DNA from: an uncultured Chloroflexia bacterium
GTDB lineage: Bacteria > Chloroflexota > Ktedonobacteria > Ktedonobacterales > JADMIN01
Direction of reading: 5' to 3'
Length of the DNA: 32,000 nucleotides
Assembly (NCBI GenBank): GCA_963718915.1
Contig: CAVRAI010000014.1
Location: forward strand, 211,033 to 243,032
Shown here: positions 2,561 through 30,639 of the stretch, in pieces
Layout: every line of letters starts with the position of its first letter
How positions within the stretch are numbered: the stretch's first letter is position 1
Program-made: the position numbers and the translations under genes
The notes under the pieces: model-generated
Told to the model about the DNA's origin: nothing
Database searches by the model: none
What the model saw: the letters and a program-made list of their open reading frames with translations, nothing else

Positions 2561-2668
2561 TGATGGGATAGCTCTCCCGAACTGACGGGTTTTTGCGTTG
2601 AAACAGGATGATACCGGGAGGGGAGAAGATACCTGGTCATCTTGCAACGCGCCGTGAAAGGGCCTCCG

Positions 2669-3754
2669 ATGACGCACTTCTTCTTGTCATCATGGAAGCG
2701 ACCCAGGACAGGACTCCTCATTCTTTGTCTCTCGTTGATGCTCGCCCTGGCTGCCTGTGGGAGCAGCACGACACCAGGGACGGGCGATCTCACCGCTGGC
2801 GCGAATCCAACTGCTACCACCACCAGCGGAGGCAGCGGCTCGCCGACCGCGACAACCAGCACAGGTGGCGGCTCGCCCACCGCGACGCCATCGGGCAGCG
2901 GCACGCCGGATGCGGTGGCTCCGCCGTTCTTCTTTACCGTCCGCGCGACCGTCAGCAATAGTGTCGGTGACTACACCCTCATCGACAACGTCGTCACGAA
3001 TGGCGACCCTGGCCTCGTCCTCTTCGTCACGGCGAACTACAACCCGAATGGCGCTGGCGGGGTCTATGACAACCATCCGCTGGGGGTCTTTTACATCAGC
3101 GGAACCACCAACAAGTGGGCGATCTATCATGATGACAAGACACCCTACATCATCAATGCCAGCTACAACGTCTGGGCACGTGAGACCAGCCAGCCCGGCA
3201 CGTTCATCTGGCGCGCCAGCGCGGCCAACAGCGCGGGGGACTACACCATCATCGACAATCCCGCCACGAACGGCAACCCCAACGTCGTCATCCTGGTGAC
3301 CCACAACTGGAATCCCGGCGGAGTCGCTGGCATCTACGAGAATCACCGGCTGGGCGTCTACTATATCGGGGGAACCACCAACAAGTGGGCGATCTACCAT
3401 CAGGACACGACACCCTACACGCTCAACGCCAATTACAACGTCTACGCGACGGTCGCCGACGGCGCGACGCGGTTCGTGGCGCACGCCTGCTCCGCGCCGT
3501 GTACCTACGACTACATCACATTCAGTAGCTCGGCGTCGAACAACAAGCCTGGCGCCATCGTCTTTGCCACGGCGAACTGGAATCCCGGCGGCACGGGCGG
3601 CGTCTATGATGACCACAACCTGGGCGTCTTCTATTCCAGCGGCTACCTGCGCTGGGCGGTCTATCACCAGGATCAGGCGGCCTACATCGCCAACTCCTCC
3701 TTCAATGTGGTGATCCCGCAGACCGGGCGAGTGAGGGCAGACCTCACCCCCTAG
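2669..3754 (+). CDS. Secreted lipoprotein of unknown function with three tandem ~90-aa repeat modules
   Basis: The ORF opens at TTG 2642, but ATG 2669 gives MTHFFLSSWKRPRTGLLILCLSLMLALAACGSS, a signal peptide plus lipobox LAAC. A T/S/G/P linker follows. The modules lie at about 2927-3199, 3200-3466 and 3467-3751 and share NWNPGG.GG.Y.NH.LGV.Y..KWAIYH.D..PY..NA.YNV. Confidence 0.8.
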   Translation: MTHFFLSSWKRPRTGLLILCLSLMLALAACGSSTTPGTGDLTAGANPTATTTSGGSGSPTATTSTGGGSPTATPSGSGTPDAVAPPFFFTVRATVSNSVGDYTLIDNVVTNGDPGLVLFVTANYNPNGAGGVYDNHPLGVFYISGTTNKWAIYHDDKTPYIINASYNVWARETSQPGTFIWRASAANSAGDYTIIDNPATNGNPNVVILVTHNWNPGGVAGIYENHRLGVYYIGGTTNKWAIYHQDTTPYTLNANYNVYATVADGATRFVAHACSAPCTYDYITFSSSASNNKPGAIVFATANWNPGGTGGVYDDHNLGVFYSSGYLRWAVYHQDQAAYIANSSFNVVIPQTGRVRADLTP

Positions 3755-3779
3755 CCCCCTCTCCCACGAGGAGAGGGGG
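3755..3779. repeat. Perfect 10-bp GC hairpin immediately after the lipoprotein stop codon (possible terminator or REP unit)
   Basis: CCCCCTCTCC-cacga-GGAGAGGGGG. No U-tract follows. Confidence 0.6.
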
Positions 3780-3811
3780 AACCAGACACCACACACGGAC
3801 GCGGACTCCGG

Positions 3812-6310: not shown

Positions 6311-6415
6311 ATGGATGATGTCCCTGAAACACCATCACTCTATGATCGTCTCTGCTCCTTCGAGAATCTCCTGCCGTATCGCGCGCCGTTCGCGGCGATA
6401 GGTGCTGGCGGTTAA
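6311..6415 (+). pseudogene. 5' stub (34 codons) of a retron/group-II-like reverse transcriptase gene
   Basis: MDDVPETPSLYDRLCSFENLLPYRAPF.. resembles the conserved N-terminus (..LWERLISFENLLLAAKQAQRGKR..) that I recall for stand-alone bacterial RVT_1 proteins. SD GAGAGGA lies upstream. The reading is truncated where the repeat at 6413 begins. Confidence 0.4.
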
Positions 6416-6479
6416 AACCGCGCCTGAAGGGCCTCGCTGCGCTCTGCCACGAAACCCGCCTGCGCGGATTCCCAGAGCG
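6413..6479 (+). repeat. REP-like element, TAAAACCGCGCCTGAAGGGCCTCGC...AAACCCGCCTGCGCGG family, copy 1
   Basis: About 85% identical to 7831-7902. It contains an N7-CTGC-N7' hairpin (AACCCGC-ctgc-GCGGatt). Confidence 0.8.
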
Positions 6480-7476: not shown

Positions 7477-7691
7477 CTTGCGCCTCCTTCTTCCCGTGCA
7501 ACCCTCCAGGGCAACGTAGCTTCCAGTGCAGAACGTAGCACAGAGCGGGCCGGAAAGGCGATGGGGGCGCGTGGCGGTATGGGGAGAGGTTCTGGCGGAA
7601 GATGCCTGGGGATGCAGGCCGAAGCGTGTTGTCGGGTAATCCATGAAATGGGTCTGGCAGAGGGAGCGCGGGCGGTTACTGTCGTTATAGG

Positions 7692-7829
7692 ATGTGCGAC
7701 GGACACGGGCATTGCGGTGGGGCGAGCAGACCGGAGCGTTCACGCTACGGCGAATTTCCTGGCCCCATTTGCTGGCAGGCTCCGGCGCGCTCGCCTCAGC
7801 ACACTGTACGGCGTTACTGCTAAAACTAC
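7692..7829. repeat. MITE-like element, copy A (75-nt conserved core plus an imperfect terminal inverted repeat)
   Basis: The core at 7692-7766 is about 89% identical to 17888-17961. Ends are gtcgttatag and ctaaaactac, which are 8/10 complementary. Confidence 0.7.
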
Positions 7830-7830
7830 A

Positions 7831-7997
7831 TAAACCGCGCCTGAAGGGCCTCGCCTGCTGCGCACGCTCCGCCACAAAACCCGCCTGCGCGGGTTGCAGA
7901 GGCTCGCTCGCCAGTCAGGTACGCCGTTGGGGGCAGGATCTGGGGAGTCCGCGTCGGCGGACTTCGTGGCCGCAGGCCCTCAAGGTGCGGTTTTAAC
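7831..7997. repeat. Inverted pair of the TAAACCGCGCCTGAAGGGCC family flanking about 70 nt
   Basis: 7831-7902 is copy 2 of the 6413 family. 7971-7997 (gcaggccctcaaggtgcggttttaacc) is a degenerate reverse-complement copy of its left end. Confidence 0.7.
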
Positions 7998-8061
7998 CGC
8001 CCGCGTACCCGCGCGGTGTCCCTGGTATTCTGTAAAACCACATCAGTCGCCAGCGTCCGTG

Positions 8062-11827: not shown

Positions 11828-11985
11828 CGGCGAATGGGCCTGAGTGGCGGAAATTCGCCGTAGCATTTATGCTACGGTCTGCCTCGCCCGCCGCCACGCG
11901 CGGGGTTCGGAGGAATCAGTGAACGTTCATCAGGCTCCGGCGAATCCAGCTATCTTGTCCATTCGCCGGAGCGTTGACGCTCCGG
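11828..11985. repeat. Two tandem composite two-hairpin REP-like modules
   Basis: Module 1: CGGCGAAT(11828)..ATTCGCCG(11860) overlaps CCGTAGCA-ttta-TGCTACGG (11858-11877). Module 2: CCGGCGAAT(11937)..ATTCGCCGG(11969) overlaps CCGGAGCG-ttga-CGCTCCGG (11966-11985). Confidence 0.8.
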
Positions 11986-17821: not shown

Positions 17822-17887
17822 ACGCGAATGAGGCGATCCCGGCCTTGACGCAGCTCTGCTAATAGTGATGGCTATCTCGGCCTTGAT

Positions 17888-18087
17888 GTCGTTTTAGCAT
17901 GTGCGATGGACACGGGCATTGCGGTGGGGTGAGCAGGCCGGAGCGTGAACGCTACGCGAATGGACGCATGCGACGATATGCGCTGGTGGGGCAGGGAAAT
18001 TCGTGGGGCATGTATGCTCCGGCACGCGTCTCTCAGCAGACCGCTGGCGCAAGCTGGAGATTTGTCCCTCCTATGTTCTAAAACGAC
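17888..18087. repeat. MITE-like element, copy B, with perfect 10-bp terminal inverted repeats
   Basis: GTCGTTTTAG (17888-17897) pairs with CTAAAACGAC (18078-18087). The core at 17888-17961 is about 89% identical to 7692-7766. It sits directly upstream of the rph SD. Confidence 0.7.
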
Positions 18088-23870: not shown

Positions 23871-24028
23871 GCTGGCGGCTGAAGCCGCAGCTAAGGGACG
23901 CGCTCCCGCGCATCCGCGAAGCCTGCCTGCGCAGGCTCCAGACATTACCCCAAACGTTCACGCTTCTGGGAGGCCGCGAAGGCGGCCTTTGCCGCCGCAG
24001 GCGCTTAGGCGCGGCTTCAGCCGCCAGC
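23871..24028. repeat. 158-bp MITE/REP-like element with perfect 18-bp terminal inverted repeats
   Basis: GCTGGCGGCTGAAGCCGC (23871-23888) is the exact reverse complement of GCGGCTTCAGCCGCCAGC (24011-24028). The interior consists of GC hairpins with 4-nt loops (AGCCTGC-ctgc-GCAGGCT, GGCCGC-gaag-GCGGCC). Confidence 0.8.
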
Positions 24029-24081
24029 CGTCATCACCCCACAATAATGTTCCGCCTACACCCTCACTGACAACCAACCGA

Positions 24082-24111
24082 TTGACACAAATACACAAGC
24101 AATGTTACACT
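24082..24111 (+). promoter_or_regulatory. Sigma-70-type promoter for the riboswitch-permease transcript
   Basis: Consensus TTGACA (24082-24087), 18-nt spacer, TACACT (24106-24111). Confidence 0.45.
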
Positions 24112-24204
24112 AGATTTGTCCGAAACACGTCGGACACATCCCGTATAGTTCCGGGGATATGGCCCGGATGTATCTACCAGGCGACCGTAAATCGCCCGAC
24201 TACG

Positions 24205-24457
24205 AGATGAAGTGCATCTAGGGTTCCGTGCCTGCCAGCTCCATGCGCAGCATCGGCGCAGTGTCGCGTCGTCCATCATCTGGATTTATCATAGCGGCGC
24301 GTTTTGGCGAGCGGCGGCGGTCTGGTCCGAGCGATGCAGGCATGTCGGTTCCGCGTGAGATGATAAAGCGGCACTGTGCATGTTACACCACGGGGAAGAA
24401 AAGCCCGGATGGTAGGTTCACTCGCGCAGAAGGACCTACCACCGGGCTAATGTTTTT
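24205..24457 (+). promoter_or_regulatory. ykkC-family riboswitch-like leader (guanidine-I / subtype-2 class) with an overlapping intrinsic terminator
   Basis: Three motifs occur in canonical order: CUAGGGUUCCG (24218-24228), GGUCCGAGCG (24324-24333) and ACACCACGGGGAAGAAAAGCCCGG (24385-24408). The terminator pairs GCCCGG..GGUAGGU with ACCUACC.CCGGGC (24403-24447), followed by UAAUGUUUUU. Its 5' arm reuses the aptamer 3' strand. Confidence 0.6.
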
Positions 24458-24520
24458 CCGGTGTGCAGGTCTGGTGATTTGGGACCGTCGCCTGGTGTCC
24501 TTTTCAGGAGGATTCTCTCC

Positions 24521-26002
24521 ATGGCCTCTGAGGTCGCGCCAGAGTCAACTGCAACAGCTTCGTCTTCGTCGCGCGCCGGTGGTATCTTTGCCACGATCAT
24601 GAATCCCGGGCACCGTGGCAGCAGTCATCGTATTGAGTTCATCGCGGGCCTGACGACCTTCGTCACGATGGCCTACATCATCTTCGTCAACGCCAGCATC
24701 ATGGAGGCGGCGGGGCTGAATTTCGACGCCCTCGTCATCGGCACCATCTTCTGCGCCGTCGTCCCCACGCTCTTCATGGGGATTTGGGCCGATCTGCCGT
24801 GGGCGTTGGCCCCTGGCCTCGGCTATAACGCCCTCTTCGCGTTTACCGTCGTCGGTCAGCGCCACTTCCCGGTGGGCGCGGCGCTCGCGCTCGTCTTCCT
24901 GGATGGCCTCGCCTTCCTGCTGATCGTCGTCGGGCCGTGGCGCGAATCTATCATCAAAGGGATTCCGCTGCCGATCAAGCTGGCCGCTGGCGCTGGCATT
25001 GGCCTGTTCATTGCCTTCATTGGCCTTGCCAATGCGGGCATCATTAAGTTCAGCGCCTTCGCCGACATCAAAGCGGGGCAGACGGTGCCCTTCGGCGACG
25101 CCTTTGGCCTGCCGGGACTGAGCGTGCTCAACGACCCCGTCGTCATCGTGGCCTTCGTCGGGCTGCTGCTGACGGGGCTGCTGATGGCGTGGCGGGTGCG
25201 TGGCGCGCTGCTGATCGGCATCCTGGTGACCACGGCGATTTGCTGGGTCGCATCAATGGTCAACACGTCACTGCGAGGGCAGCTGCTGCCCAACGCTCCG
25301 AAGAATCCTACTGGCGTCAGCAGCTTCATCGCGCTGCCCAACCTGGGCCAGTTCTGGAGCCAGCGCGGCCTGATCGATTTCGGCTCGCTCTTTAGTGGCA
25401 ACCTGGCTACCGGCGCGATCATCCTCTTCTTCGTGACATTCCTCGTCACGGATATGATGGATTCGCTCGGCACCTTCAGCGGCCTGGCCACCAAGCTTGG
25501 CATCCTCGACAAGGAAGGCAACTTCCCGCATTCGGGGCGCGCGCTGATTGTGGACGCCGCCGCTGGCATGTTTGGCCCAATCACCGGCAACGCTACCATC
25601 GCGACATTCATCGAGAGCGCGGCGGGCGAGAGCGAGGGCGGCAAGACTGGCCTCACCTCCGTCTGGGTCGCGATCTTCTTCCTGCTCACGCTCTTCCTGG
25701 TGCCGTTCATTGGGCTGGTGCCGCCGGTGGCGACGGCTCCGGCGCTGATCGTCGTCGGCTTCCTGATGATCGAGCCAATTGTCAAGATCGGCTTCGATAG
25801 CATCACCGATGGCCTGCCCGCTTTCCTGGCGCTGCTGTTCATGCCGCTGACCTACTCCATCGCGGACGGCATGTTCGTCGGCATCGTCAGCTATGTCGTG
25901 CTCAAGACGCTCACCGGCAAGATTCGCGAGGTCAGCTGGATCATGTGGGTCTTTGCCGCGTTGCTCATACTCGCCAAGATACTCGACGCGGCGAGTTTGT
26001 AG
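24521..26002 (+). CDS. NCS2-family (AzgA/PbuG-like) adenine/guanine/hypoxanthine permease
   Basis: IEFIAGLTTFVTMAYIIFVNASIM.. is a typical AzgA N-terminus, with about 13 TM helices. SD AGGAGGA at 24505-24511. I take ATG 24521 as the start rather than the upstream ORF start at 24461. Confidence 0.88.
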   Translation: MASEVAPESTATASSSSRAGGIFATIMNPGHRGSSHRIEFIAGLTTFVTMAYIIFVNASIMEAAGLNFDALVIGTIFCAVVPTLFMGIWADLPWALAPGLGYNALFAFTVVGQRHFPVGAALALVFLDGLAFLLIVVGPWRESIIKGIPLPIKLAAGAGIGLFIAFIGLANAGIIKFSAFADIKAGQTVPFGDAFGLPGLSVLNDPVVIVAFVGLLLTGLLMAWRVRGALLIGILVTTAICWVASMVNTSLRGQLLPNAPKNPTGVSSFIALPNLGQFWSQRGLIDFGSLFSGNLATGAIILFFVTFLVTDMMDSLGTFSGLATKLGILDKEGNFPHSGRALIVDAAAGMFGPITGNATIATFIESAAGESEGGKTGLTSVWVAIFFLLTLFLVPFIGLVPPVATAPALIVVGFLMIEPIVKIGFDSITDGLPAFLALLFMPLTYSIADGMFVGIVSYVVLKTLTGKIREVSWIMWVFAALLILAKILDAASL

Positions 26003-26849: not shown

Positions 26850-28253
<1,404 letters not shown>

Positions 28254-28497: not shown

Positions 28498-30639
28498 TCA
28501 TCCCCAGATATCCGTCGCCGCGTCGATGGCCCGGCGCTGTGACAAGAGCAGCTTCTTGCGCGTCATCAGCGTGCGCAACGCCTCGTCGTCAGCCTCGCGT
28601 ACCAGATAGTCCAGTTCAGCCATCTCCGCCTTCAATCGCATCCGCTTCAGCCGATAGGCGGCTTTGCTGGCGATTTTCGTGAGTGATGGGCCAGATTCGG
28701 GCAGATTCAATGAGACACGCGCGCCCGCAGCCGCGGCAACCTGGCGTAGCTCTTCAGGCAACATCCCGCTGAATGCATCACCCTGTGCGGATGGGGCTAG
28801 TCTCCCCTCGCGCGTCGCCATCGCGAAGATGGTATAGATCGCGCGCATATCCGCGCTGGTGAAATCGCTCTCATCGAGAATCGCGAAGATATCCATCCAT
28901 GTCGCCGGGTTCGCCGCCAGCAGCCCCACGCAGTATTCCGCCTGCGCCAGTTCCGCCAGCAGTTCGCCCGTCGCCCCGGCAGCGCCTGAAGCTCTATAGT
29001 TGAAGAACGGGCCAGTTGGCGACCCTTCCGCCTCAGAGTACTTTCGTCCGGGTGAGTCGTCAGCAGCGTCTGAATCTGCTTGTCCAGAATCTACCGGGCC
29101 GCGTGACTGTCCGCCCTGCGCGCGCGTCTCGCGATCCAGCCGTCTGCGTGTCTGGGCGAGGTCGCGTTGCACGTCATGCACATCGAGGTGCAGGTGGGCC
29201 GCCAGCCGATCCGCGTATTCGCCGGCCAGCGTGCGATTGCGCACCTCCGCCAGAATCGGCAGCAAGCGGCGCGACGCCTCCATTTTGCCCTGAGGCGTAT
29301 CCAGCGCGAGGTCGGCGGTCTGGGCGGCGATGAGGTATTCGATCAGCGGGGCCGAGTGCTCGATGGCCTGCTGCCAGCCAGCGGGGTCGCGCCGCGCGAA
29401 TTCGTCTGGGTCTTCGTGTGGCGGCAGCTTCGCGACGGTGATCTCGGCGTCCACCTGCTCCTCAAAACTGACGATGCCCCGTGGCGAGCCGCGCTTGCCG
29501 CTGTGCGTCGCCCAGCCCCCTTGCTGCGCGCGCGCGGAATCTGGCGCTGGCCCAGGCACGGGCACGACGACACGGTCGAACGCTTGTTGCGCGACGGTGA
29601 TACCACGCAGGGTGGCCGACTCACCCGCCGCATCGGGATCGAGGGCGAGCGTTACCCGGCGGGTCAGCTTTTTGATCTGGCGGATGTGCTTCTCGGTGAT
29701 GGCGCTGCCGATACAGGCGACGACGTTGCGCGTGCCATACTGGTGCGTCACGACAGCATCCATGTAGCCCTCGACGATGACGATCCGATTGCCACGGCGG
29801 ATGGCGTCGCGGGCGAGATCGAGGCCGTAGAGGGTGGCGCTTTTATCGAAGAGCAGCGTCTGTGGAGTGTTGAGGTACTTGATGTTACTGCCATCCAGCG
29901 CGCGCGCGCCAAAGGCGATGGTCTGGCCGCGTACGTCGCGGATCGGGAAGATCAGTCGATTCCGGAAATAGCCATAGATGCCGCCGCCACGACTCGCCTC
30001 GCGTTCGCGAGCCAGCCCCACCTCGACCAGCTCTTTCTCGCTATAGCCGACGCTCAGCAGATACTGCGTCAGCGCGTCGCCATCGGGCGCGTAGCCGAGC
30101 CGCCACTGCGCGATGGAATCGTTGCTGACGCCGCGCGAGTCAAGGTAGGAGCGGCAATACTGGGCGCTGGTGGACTGGAGCAGTTGGTGGTGGAACCAGA
30201 TGGCGGCGGCTTCGTTGAGCGCGCGCATGCGTTTGCGGGCCGAGGTTTCGGCGGCTTCTTCGGCGCTTTCCGGGCGGCTGCCGCTCTCCAATGGGATACC
30301 CGCGCGTTCGGCAAGTAGCTCCAGCGCCTCGCGGAAGTCGAGCGATTGCTGCTTCTGCACAAAGGTAATGATGTCGCCGCGCTCGCCACAGCCAAAGCAG
30401 TGCCAGTCCTGCTTATCGGGGAAGACGTAGAACGAAGGGGTGCGCTCGCCGTGGAAGGGGCAGAGACCCTTGAAGGCCTTGCCAGACTTCTTCAGCGAAA
30501 CAACCGCCCCAATTTCTTCGACGATGTCGAGCTTCTGCTTAATGCGCTCGATAATGCTCGTTGCGTCCGTTGCCGTGATCCTCTGAGGGATAACCGCCCC
30601 TCTGGTCGCGCTAGATGTGTCAGAAACCGAGACTGACAC
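28498..30639 (-). CDS. dnaG: DNA primase
   Basis: CHC2 zinc finger CPFHGERTPSFYVFPDKQDWHCFGCGERGD. TOPRIM blocks IVIVEGYMDAV and LALDPDAAG. GTG start at 30637-30639. Confidence 0.92.
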   Translation of the reverse strand: MSVSVSDTSSATRGAVIPQRITATDATSIIERIKQKLDIVEEIGAVVSLKKSGKAFKGLCPFHGERTPSFYVFPDKQDWHCFGCGERGDIITFVQKQQSLDFREALELLAERAGIPLESGSRPESAEEAAETSARKRMRALNEAAAIWFHHQLLQSTSAQYCRSYLDSRGVSNDSIAQWRLGYAPDGDALTQYLLSVGYSEKELVEVGLAREREASRGGGIYGYFRNRLIFPIRDVRGQTIAFGARALDGSNIKYLNTPQTLLFDKSATLYGLDLARDAIRRGNRIVIVEGYMDAVVTHQYGTRNVVACIGSAITEKHIRQIKKLTRRVTLALDPDAAGESATLRGITVAQQAFDRVVVPVPGPAPDSARAQQGGWATHSGKRGSPRGIVSFEEQVDAEITVAKLPPHEDPDEFARRDPAGWQQAIEHSAPLIEYLIAAQTADLALDTPQGKMEASRRLLPILAEVRNRTLAGEYADRLAAHLHLDVHDVQRDLAQTRRRLDRETRAQGGQSRGPVDSGQADSDAADDSPGRKYSEAEGSPTGPFFNYRASGAAGATGELLAELAQAEYCVGLLAANPATWMDIFAILDESDFTSADMRAIYTIFAMATREGRLAPSAQGDAFSGMLPEELRQVAAAAGARVSLNLPESGPSLTKIASKAAYRLKRMRLKAEMAELDYLVREADDEALRTLMTRKKLLLSQRRAIDAATDIWG

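Follow-up and report, generated by a model that had tools for sequence, protein, structure and literature searches.

A candidate tandem guanine-PRPP riboswitch before an AzgA-type permease gene in a Ktedonobacterales bacterium

The leader of a purine permease gene in an uncultured Chloroflexia bacterium (GTDB order Ktedonobacterales) raises a simple question: which ligands does this RNA sense, and with how many aptamers? The gene lies in a stretch of 32,000 nucleotides, here called the window (contig CAVRAI010000014.1, positions 211,033 to 243,032 of the forward strand, assembly GCA_963718915.1). An original prediction, made from the sequence alone, placed a ykkC-family leader at 24205-24520, with an atypical insertion in the aptamer and the layout of a single-input ON switch. 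The leader, at about 24120-24460, is very probably a tandem guanine-PRPP (5-phosphoribosyl-1-pyrophosphate) riboswitch with two aptamers and one common terminator. Its tandem identity is seen in the identity and conservation of the two aptamers, in nucleotides common to the guanine P1 stem and the PRPP P0 stem, in the overlap of the PRPP aptamer with the terminator, and in the gene context.

The permease leader

When the window was compared with all Rfam families, the sole match at gathering thresholds was the guanine-class purine aptamer RF00167. This match (24121-24222, 77.1 bits against a gathering score of 37, E 2.6e-12) takes in model positions 1-102 of 102 and covers the full three-way junction. 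The predicted start of the element, 24205, falls inside the P1 3' strand of this aptamer, which had been overlooked. Position 74 of purine aptamers is C in the guanine class and U in the adenine-sensing members. Here it is C24200 (GACUACG aligned to the consensus GACUA), which marks the 5' aptamer as guanine class.

The ykkC-family blocks that had been predicted are present 3' of this aptamer: CUAGGGUUCCG at 24218-24228, GGUCCGAGCG at 24324-24333 (106-107 nt from the first, start to start) and ACACCACGGGGAAGAAAAGCCCGG at 24385-24408. The third had been given as 'ACACGG.GGGA.AAAAGCCCGG', a wording that only approximates the actual ACACCACGGGGAAGAAAAGCCCGG. A permissive cmscan of 24050-24600 (551 nt) aligned 24207-24413 to RF00442, the Guanidine-I (ykkC) model, at 41.2 bits (E 5e-6), with insertions of 83 nt in P1b and of 32 nt in the P2 loop. 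No other Rfam ykkC-family model matched the region at the E-value thresholds used. A scan with RF00442 had been proposed as a check; it does give a match, although one below the gathering score of 63, and as a refutation test RF00442 would have been ambiguous without a subtype-2b model beside it. RF00442-only scans in the style of Rfam under-call subtype-2 aptamers with long P1b insertions.

The non-guanidine ykkC RNAs have been split into subtypes, of which subtype 2b binds PRPP (Sherlock et al. 2018, eLife 7:e33908, PMC5912903). In that work 127 of 257 examples were located directly downstream of a guanine aptamer, with one common terminator. A covariance model, R1, was seeded with 20 published tandem guanine-PRPP sequences, whose ungapped lengths agree with their coordinates. 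The PRPP half was cut out and aligned, and P0, P1, P1a, P2 and both parts of P3 were annotated; in this seed alignment the annotated pairs are formed in 96.3% of the cells, and 18 pairs vary on both sides. R1 has a single match in the 32 kb, 24204-24426, which covers all 129 model positions at 58.6 bits (E 1e-15). The ykkC-family match is beyond chance by either model, and the full-length alignments to RF00442 and R1 contain the whole ykkC scaffold (P1, P1a, P1b, P2, P3) with its blocks CUAGGGUUCC, GGUCCGAG and ACACC...GGGA.AAAAGCCC.

The junction of the two aptamers and the 3' end also match the published consensus. The junction GACUACGAGAUGAAGUGCAUCUAGGG and the tail GGAUGGUAGGUUCACUC parallel GACUAYGAGYGAAAGYGYAYCUAGGG...GGCGGGUAGGUUUCACUC of the published tandems. 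Written out in blocks, the consensus (PMC5912903) reads ...GACUAYGAGYG-A-AAGYGYAY-CUAGGGUUCC (variable) CUGGUCCGAGCGGUACAG (P2) ACACC-G-A-AGGGAUAAAAGCCCAGGCGGGUAGGUUUCACUC, and its counterpart in the window ...GACUACGAGAUG-AAGUGCAU-CUAGGGUUCC (insertion) CUGGUCCGAGCGAUGCAG (P2) ACACC-A-C-GGGGAAGAAAAGCCCGGAUGG-UAGGUUCACUC. The agreement with subtype 2b includes the 3' tail, which guanidine-I riboswitches lack. The conserved tails, which form P0 and carry A5, G6 and A103-G105, are present, with AAG at 24210-24212 and UAGG at 24413-24416.

Individual residues were numbered by way of the Thermoanaerobacter mathranii sequence in the published alignment, transferred to the crystal structure of that PRPP aptamer (PDB 6CK5; Knappenberger, Reiss & Strobel 2018, eLife 7:e36381, PMC6031431); all assignments, G96 and C75 included, are alignment-based. 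The position that marks the subtype is a pyrimidine in PRPP aptamers (C49 in T. mathranii) and an adenosine in guanidine-I RNAs (PMC6031431). In the window C49 is C24332 and G48 is G24331, both inside GGUCCGAGCG. The residues C75, A76, C77 and C78 correspond to 24386-24389 (C75 = C24386), G95/G96 to G24407/G24408 (GCCC-G24407-G24408 aligned to GCCC-G95-G96), A5 and G6 to A24211 and G24212, and A103-G104-G105 to 24414-24416. G96, which pairs with C75, has a conservation of more than 97% among PRPP aptamers, and the subtype 2a aptamers for ppGpp (guanosine tetraphosphate) have a base other than G there; the mutation G96A switches specificity 40,000-fold (PMC6031431). High-affinity binding of ppGpp is excluded by the presence of G96. 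To judge from its sequence, then, the 3' aptamer is ykkC subtype 2b (PRPP) and not guanidine-I. The original prediction had also preferred subtype 2 to guanidine-I and listed PRPP among several ligands, and C49, G96 and the P0 tails bear it out on both points.

A guanidine-I riboswitch (subtype 1) recruited to the permease gene can scarcely be credited. Its one attraction is that RF00442 is the only Rfam ykkC-family model with a match, and that match scores 41.2 bits where 63 are needed; the marker residue is C24332 rather than A, the tails that form P0 are present, and the gene context has neither a guanidine carboxylase nor an exporter. The gene downstream is an open reading frame of 493 amino acids (24521-26002, ATG at 24521) that matches Pfam Xan_ur_permease and has no NCBIfam match. 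Among proteins of solved structure it is closest to the Arabidopsis adenine/guanine permeases AZG1/AZG2 (PDB sequence search, E 6e-63), and the label 'AzgA-type' of the original prediction is therefore correct. The gene is monocistronic, with its upstream neighbours on the minus strand.

Both the terminator and its arrangement were foreseen. The hairpin 24402-24448 is long and G+C-rich, with a 5' arm that starts with the GCCCGG end of the aptamer, and a U-run follows it. Its folding energy is -32 kcal/mol compared to an average of -15.1 kcal/mol for shuffled sequences (z = -6.0). The terminator 5' arm and the PRPP aptamer have nucleotides 24402-24419 in common; in the aptamer these include the P3 3' strand, G96, the A103-G105 tail and the start of the P0 3' strand. 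The proposed ON-switch layout is right in this overlap of P3 and the 3' tail with the terminator; the single input is not, since the element is the 3' half of a two-aptamer device. A simple terminator scanner reported an irrelevant site in an open reading frame and missed the terminator at 24402-24457, because its loop and U-run spacing are beyond the limits of the scanner. The minimum-free-energy fold of the whole leader has the terminator and P2 and is otherwise uninformative on ligand-bound states.

The two aptamers abut. The guanine P1 ends at 24208 and the PRPP P1 starts at 24213, so that they are 4 nt apart with the Rfam P1 and 5 nt apart with the published 7-bp P1. Six nucleotides, 24203-24208, are at once the 3' strand of the guanine P1 and part of the 5' strand of the PRPP P0, and because they are shared the two helices are mutually exclusive.

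One further complementarity occurs near the terminator. CACCGG in its 3' arm (24440-24445) is complementary to CCGGUG (24458-24463) just past the U-run, and this is kept, with wobble changes, in most of the relatives linked to AzgA-type permeases. The two could form a small alternative hairpin around the U-run after read-through.

These observations bear on the reading of the leader as two independent switches in series, with the guanine aptamer acting through some other platform (translation or an unrecognised terminator) and no competition between P1 and P0. There would be room for other structures in the long P1b and P2 extensions and in the segment of about 70 nt between terminator and Shine-Dalgarno sequence, and the conserved CACCGG/CCGGUG complement flanks the U-run. 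With only 4 nt between the P1 stems and six nucleotides shared by guanine P1 and P0, this arrangement is very unlikely; neither a hairpin with a U-run nor a second terminator-like hairpin was found between the aptamers by reading of the sequence, by the scanner or by folding.

Conservation and departures from the published class

Is the tandem arrangement maintained in relatives? Relatives of the permease were collected by scanning one genome per species, and 80 homologous loci were examined. The closest permeases are in metagenome-assembled genomes (MAGs) of Ktedonobacterales (L001, L002 and L003, with 96, 95 and 86% identity), followed by those of a Chloroflexia MAG (L004, 71%) and another Ktedonobacterales MAG (L005, 69%). 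L001 and L002 are collinear with the window, with about 90% DNA identity over both flanks. All five loci have the Purine aptamer and the R1 match at the same place. In a six-way alignment every conserved block is invariant, and both the length and the sequence of P1b and distal P2 vary; the terminator is kept in relatives.

A 22-mer, AAAAGCCCGGAUGGUAGGUUCA, was used as a probe of metagenome contigs. It detected 20 loci, all with a full-length R1 match (55-78 bits). At 19 of them the Purine aptamer is directly upstream; the other, L082, is a singlet PRPP-type aptamer with an R1 score of 77.7 bits. The window, the five MAG loci and the 20 metagenome loci make up a clade of 26 members with 23 distinct sequences, six of which members (the window and the five MAG loci) can be assigned to Chloroflexota. 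The 22-mer is invariant throughout the clade (26/26) and differs from the Firmicutes consensus. The guanine aptamer, and with it the tandem arrangement, is kept in 25 of the 26 members.

Over the 23 distinct clade sequences the consensus PRPP fold is 96.9% paired; the alignment had been fitted to the model, and this biases it towards the modelled structure. Changes on both sides occur in nine pairs, a number reached by none of 500 shuffles, and when the partners were slid by 1-3 columns only 27-38% of positions were paired. P0 is 95.7% paired; P2 is 95.6% paired, with four of its seven pairs changing on both sides within the clade. Two loci with CUCAGGG or CUGAGGG variants were included in this covariance-model alignment. 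A real pairing signal is indicated by the slid controls and by the freedom with which P1b and P2 vary.

The insertion of about 85 nt that had been singled out as atypical is real (83 nt by cmscan), but it is not unusual. It lies in the distal part of P1b. CUAGG and GUCCGAG are 13 to 135 nt apart in the 20 published tandem sequences, compared to 107 nt in the window; another published member has an insertion that is longer still. As a special structure it was dropped: the fold of P1b is no more stable than those of shuffled sequences (z = +0.36), its length and sequence vary even among close relatives (block-to-block distances of 31-106 nt), and the permissive scan of 24050-24600 found no Rfam match inside it. 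The P1b insertion is an ordinary variable stem extension and does not distinguish this leader.

A 9-bp long-range pairing had also been proposed. The complementarity, 24227-24235 with 24336-24344, is perfect in the window (its first coordinate had been off by one); relatives do not preserve it as a helix. When 14 distinct clade sequences were aligned without gaps, with the conserved blocks as anchors, the proposed helix was 77.8% paired, compared to 73.1 ± 1.5% in shuffles and 29-56% in slid versions. Its two central pairs are unpaired in nine and in seven of the 14 sequences. The complementarity is made up largely of conserved CG/CC and GG/CG dinucleotides of P1a/P1b and P2. Because it is poorly kept and would destroy the covarying P1 and P2, the pairing was rejected as a conserved structure, and a transient alternative fold is possible. 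One pair within it (alignment columns 23/48, window 24233/24338) does covary, as UA, GU, UG and CG. Position 24338 is also a partner in the outermost pair of P1, and in sequences of the L083/L100 type the P1 pair is mismatched while the alternative 24233/24338-type pair is intact. With so few lineages, this covariation may be due to chance.

A single-input ykkC ON switch that includes the 9-bp pairing, with no role for the sequence upstream, is highly improbable in the light of these comparisons. Both the ykkC blocks and their overlap with the terminator are genuine, the complementarity is perfect in the window, and singlets do exist, both in L082 and in several Bacillota permease leaders. In the window, though, a full-scoring guanine aptamer abuts the ykkC element and shares P0 nucleotides with it, an arrangement kept in 25 of the 26 clade members, and the helix that the single-input switch would use is lost in relatives and incompatible with the covarying P1 and P2.

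Several observations weigh against the assignment to the tandem guanine-PRPP class. A residue equivalent to A101 is absent in all 26 clade members (GGAUGG-UAGG); in T. mathranii A101 contacts the PRPP alpha-phosphate, although the position, a purine in more than 75% of cases, has been called weakly conserved (PMC6031431), and it is gapped in at least one published tandem sequence as well (PMC5912903 alignment). Most clade members have a P3 loop of 8 nt, not 7 nt, and the A-run/U-run of the clade P0 is one nucleotide shorter. The U-run begins 4 nt past the terminator stem, a less than ideal spacing for an intrinsic terminator, and the permease gene is outside the published association with de novo purine genes and codA. 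The scan of the window yielded no match to a separate PRPP or ppGpp family from Rfam 15; membership in the PRPP class rests on the custom model R1 and the residue mapping, and the presumed ligand on homology. Three features of the published description are missing here: the weakly conserved residue 101, the gene association and the taxonomic range, the last of which is not a defining feature.

The same differences could be taken to indicate a ykkC subtype-2 variant that has another ligand (ppGpp, a nucleoside diphosphate or some other phosphoribosyl compound) and still forms a tandem with the guanine aptamer. The invariant clade-specific features (no residue 101, a larger P3 loop, A97/U98) adjoin the ligand pocket, the Chloroflexota-type signature CCCGGAUGG is found in neither published alignment, and ykkC specificity can flip by a single mutation such as the 40,000-fold G96A (PMC6031431). 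Such a variant is nevertheless unlikely. All reported direct contacts to PRPP are present save the weakly conserved A101, and G96 excludes high-affinity ppGpp binding. At least one published tandem member is likewise gapped at 101, and others have A97/U98. Moreover, the overlap of P0 with the guanine P1 and the gene contexts (base salvage, cytosine deaminase) fit a PRPP logic. It is similarly doubtful that the Chloroflexota-type aptamer is a functionally distinct offshoot of the PRPP class, with an altered ligand (another phosphoribosyl or nucleotide compound) or gate logic and specialised for nucleobase uptake rather than synthesis; that reading draws on the missing residue 101, the larger P3 loop, the shortened P0 junction and the weakened guanine P1, in a variant that is invariant in 26 sequences.

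Gate logic and gene context

How would a tandem guanine-PRPP riboswitch regulate the permease gene? The ligands, the direction of regulation and the gate logic are modelled here on the systems of Bacillus megaterium and T. mathranii. For the codA tandem of B. megaterium, transcription and reporter assays have shown an IMPLY gate (PMC5912903), and for T. mathranii a competition of P0 with the guanine P1 has been proposed (PMC6031431). By analogy, the 5' aptamer would bind guanine or a close purine and the 3' aptamer PRPP. PRPP binding would require P0 (24203-24211 with 24417-24424) and P3 with the 3' tail (24404-24416). Bound PRPP would lock both, leaving the terminator 5' arm (24402-24419) unavailable, and transcription would read through into the permease gene. 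Guanine would stabilise its own P1 and in doing so remove six nucleotides of the P0 5' strand; the PRPP aptamer would be destabilised and the terminator would form. PRPP would override guanine. In the terms of the published IMPLY gate, the permease would be expressed in all conditions but one, high guanine together with low PRPP.

For a purine-base importer such a gate is sensible, because base salvage by phosphoribosyltransferases consumes PRPP. Only a build-up of the base together with a shortage of PRPP would shut off uptake, and imported guanine or hypoxanthine would be useful only with PRPP at hand. The rationale that uptake is worthwhile when PRPP is available, even in the presence of guanine, would complement the stringent-response explanation of the original paper.

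The balance between the two helices may be modified in the window. Its guanine P1 has a C24141·A24205 mismatch, which the closest relatives share without exception; in other clade members a U replaces C24141, which gives a U·A pair. In the PRPP P0, A24205 pairs with U24422. The mismatch may tip the competition between P1 and P0 towards P0.

The genes downstream vary with the set of relatives. Among the 80 permease loci the Purine aptamer is upstream in 14, seven in tandem with a PRPP-type aptamer and seven as singlets. The seven tandem loci are L001-L005 and two from Bacillota, L017 and L019 (Dethiobacter), and L033 has a weak PRPP-type match. In the metagenome set an AzgA-type permease is downstream at 10 loci. 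At nine others (L081, L083, L086, L087, L091, L094, L097, L098 and L100) the leader precedes an NCS1 cytosine/purine permease (Pfam Transp_cyt_pur), which is followed by a deaminase of about 150 amino acids with the CDA fold (Fcy1-like). This combination is a context of the cytosine-deaminase type and echoes the published association with codA.

Strong singlet PRPP-type aptamers were also observed before AzgA-type permeases, in L009, L010 and L024 (Bacillota MAGs) and in L037, with R1 scores of 95-105 bits. The metagenome singlet L082 likewise precedes an AzgA-type permease gene. The MAG of L037 is labelled Desulfovibrio and would be another occurrence outside the Firmicutes if the binning is right.

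PRPP riboswitches have been described in Firmicutes, for the genes of de novo purine synthesis up to inosine monophosphate (IMP) and for codA. A literature search found no paper that links a PRPP riboswitch to a permease, or Ktedonobacter to a riboswitch, which is weak evidence since subscription papers were outside the search. The original sorting of ykkC subtypes was based partly on the downstream gene (PMC5912903), and permease-linked examples may therefore have been left out. If the assignment is right, the gate is present and under selection in the Ktedonobacteria/Chloroflexota, beyond the Firmicutes-only published description, and controls nucleobase transporters there, either an AzgA-type permease or an NCS1 permease with a cytosine deaminase. 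The tandem architecture also precedes AzgA-type permeases in some Bacillota.

The features of the locus are collected in Table 1. The promoter-like site has 10 of 12 consensus matches, and shuffled versions of the region average 0.3 sites. This putative promoter would start the leader about 25 nt 5' of the guanine aptamer P1. On the other side of the permease gene dnaG and rpoD occur in their usual order, convergent with it.

Table 1. Coordinates of the leader elements, the permease gene and neighbouring genes in the window.
Feature	Position	Strand	Basis and remarks
Sigma-70-type promoter-like site (TTGACA, 18 nt, TACACT, upstream TG)	24082..24111	+	Consensus match
Guanine-class purine riboswitch aptamer	24138..24208	+	RF00167 match
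Guanine aptamer P1	24138-24145 with 24201-24208	+	
Guanine aptamer P2	24149-24169	+	
Guanine aptamer P3	24178-24198	+	
P0 5' strand (CGAG-A-UGAA)	24203..24211	+	R1 alignment; overlaps guanine P1 3' strand at 24203-24208
P0 helix	24203-24211 with 24417-24424	+	One bulge
P1 / P1a / P1b region	24213..24338	+	cmscan and cmsearch alignments
P1	24213-24218 with 24333-24338	+	CUAGGGUU internal loop follows
P1a	C24226, C24227 with G24324, G24325	+	
Extended P1b stem	~24228-24323	+	~85-nt insertion
P2 hairpin	24339..24384	+	GGCAUGU 24339-24345 with GCAUGUU 24378-24384; distal part extended by 32 nt
Ligand-pocket strand and 3' tail	24385..24424	+	R1 alignment; ACACC = 24385-24389
Outer P3	24388-24390 with 24410-24412	+	
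P3	24393-24395 with 24404-24406	+	
P0 3' strand	24417-24424	+	
Shared intrinsic terminator	24402..24457	+	Folding; hairpin 24402-24448, then UAAUGUUUUU; U-run 24453-24457
Shine-Dalgarno and AzgA-type (NCS2 family) permease gene	24506..26002	+	Shine-Dalgarno AGGAGG 24506-24511
rpoD-like primary sigma factor	26850-28253	-	
DnaG primase	28498-30639	-	

Repeats occur elsewhere in the window. An element of about 158 nt (23871-24028), located between a divergent moaB/mog-like gene and the riboswitch promoter, is bounded by 25-nt inverted repeats (GCTGGCGGCTGAAGCCGCAGCTAAG / CTTAGGCGCGGCTTCAGCCGCCAGC) that are 92% complementary. Related copies are found near 6396-6476 and 7832-8006, with similar sequences in L001; the copy in L002 gives a spurious match to Rfam CRISPR-DR28. 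The element looks like an intergenic repeat family of the MITE (miniature inverted-repeat transposable element) or REP (repetitive extragenic palindrome) kind. A second dispersed repeat of about 54-70 nt occurs as direct copies at 7680-7749 and 17887-17956 (90% identical) and as an inverted 54-nt arm at 11849-11902 (76% complementary). Two adjacent 232-nt direct repeats (2942-3443, 72% identity, 270-nt spacing) lie inside long, overlapping open reading frames on opposite strands (2642-3754 plus, 2690-3796 minus), and probably reflect an internal protein repeat.

Comparison with known systems

The leader is closest to the tandem guanine-PRPP riboswitch of Sherlock et al. As in that system, the guanine aptamer is directly 5' of the PRPP-type aptamer with the same consensus for junction and tail, the guanine P1 and P0 overlap, P1b is variable, and a single terminator uses the P3 3' strand and tail as its 5' arm. 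In the published tandems there are typically 5-7 nt between the two P1 stems. Those tandems are all from Firmicutes, whereas the host here belongs to the Chloroflexota (Ktedonobacterales) and the gene encodes an AzgA-type permease. The clade also differs in lacking residue 101, in its 8-nt P3 loop, in having UGAAG/GGUUCA rather than UGAAAG/GGUUUCA, and in the C·A mismatch of the guanine P1.

The PRPP aptamer of T. mathranii has the same order of elements, P0-P1-P1a-P1b-P2-P3, and equivalents of its G48, C49, C75, C77, C78, G96, A103, G104, G105, A5 and G6 are found in the window. P0 and the guanine P1 are mutually exclusive, as in its native context. Unlike the T. mathranii aptamer, that of the window has a P1b of about 95 nt (14 nt in T. 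mathranii), a 32-nt distal extension of P2, no A101 and one more nucleotide in the P3 loop. With guanidine-I riboswitches (RF00442) the 3' aptamer has in common the overall ykkC scaffold and most of the conserved nucleotides of tertiary contacts. It is set apart from them by the marker C in place of A, the tails that form P0, the score below the gathering value and the different gene context.

Singlet guanine riboswitches, reportedly described by Mandal et al. in 2003, sit before genes for hypoxanthine/guanine permeases of the pbuG type. The aptamer class and the type of regulated gene are the same here, and such singlets are present at seven of the 80 permease loci. In contrast to these singlets, the guanine aptamer of the window has no expression platform of its own and would act via the adjoining PRPP aptamer. 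The mechanism proposed for this leader is not new; what appears new here is the phylum, the class of regulated gene (nucleobase transporters) and the clade-specific variant.

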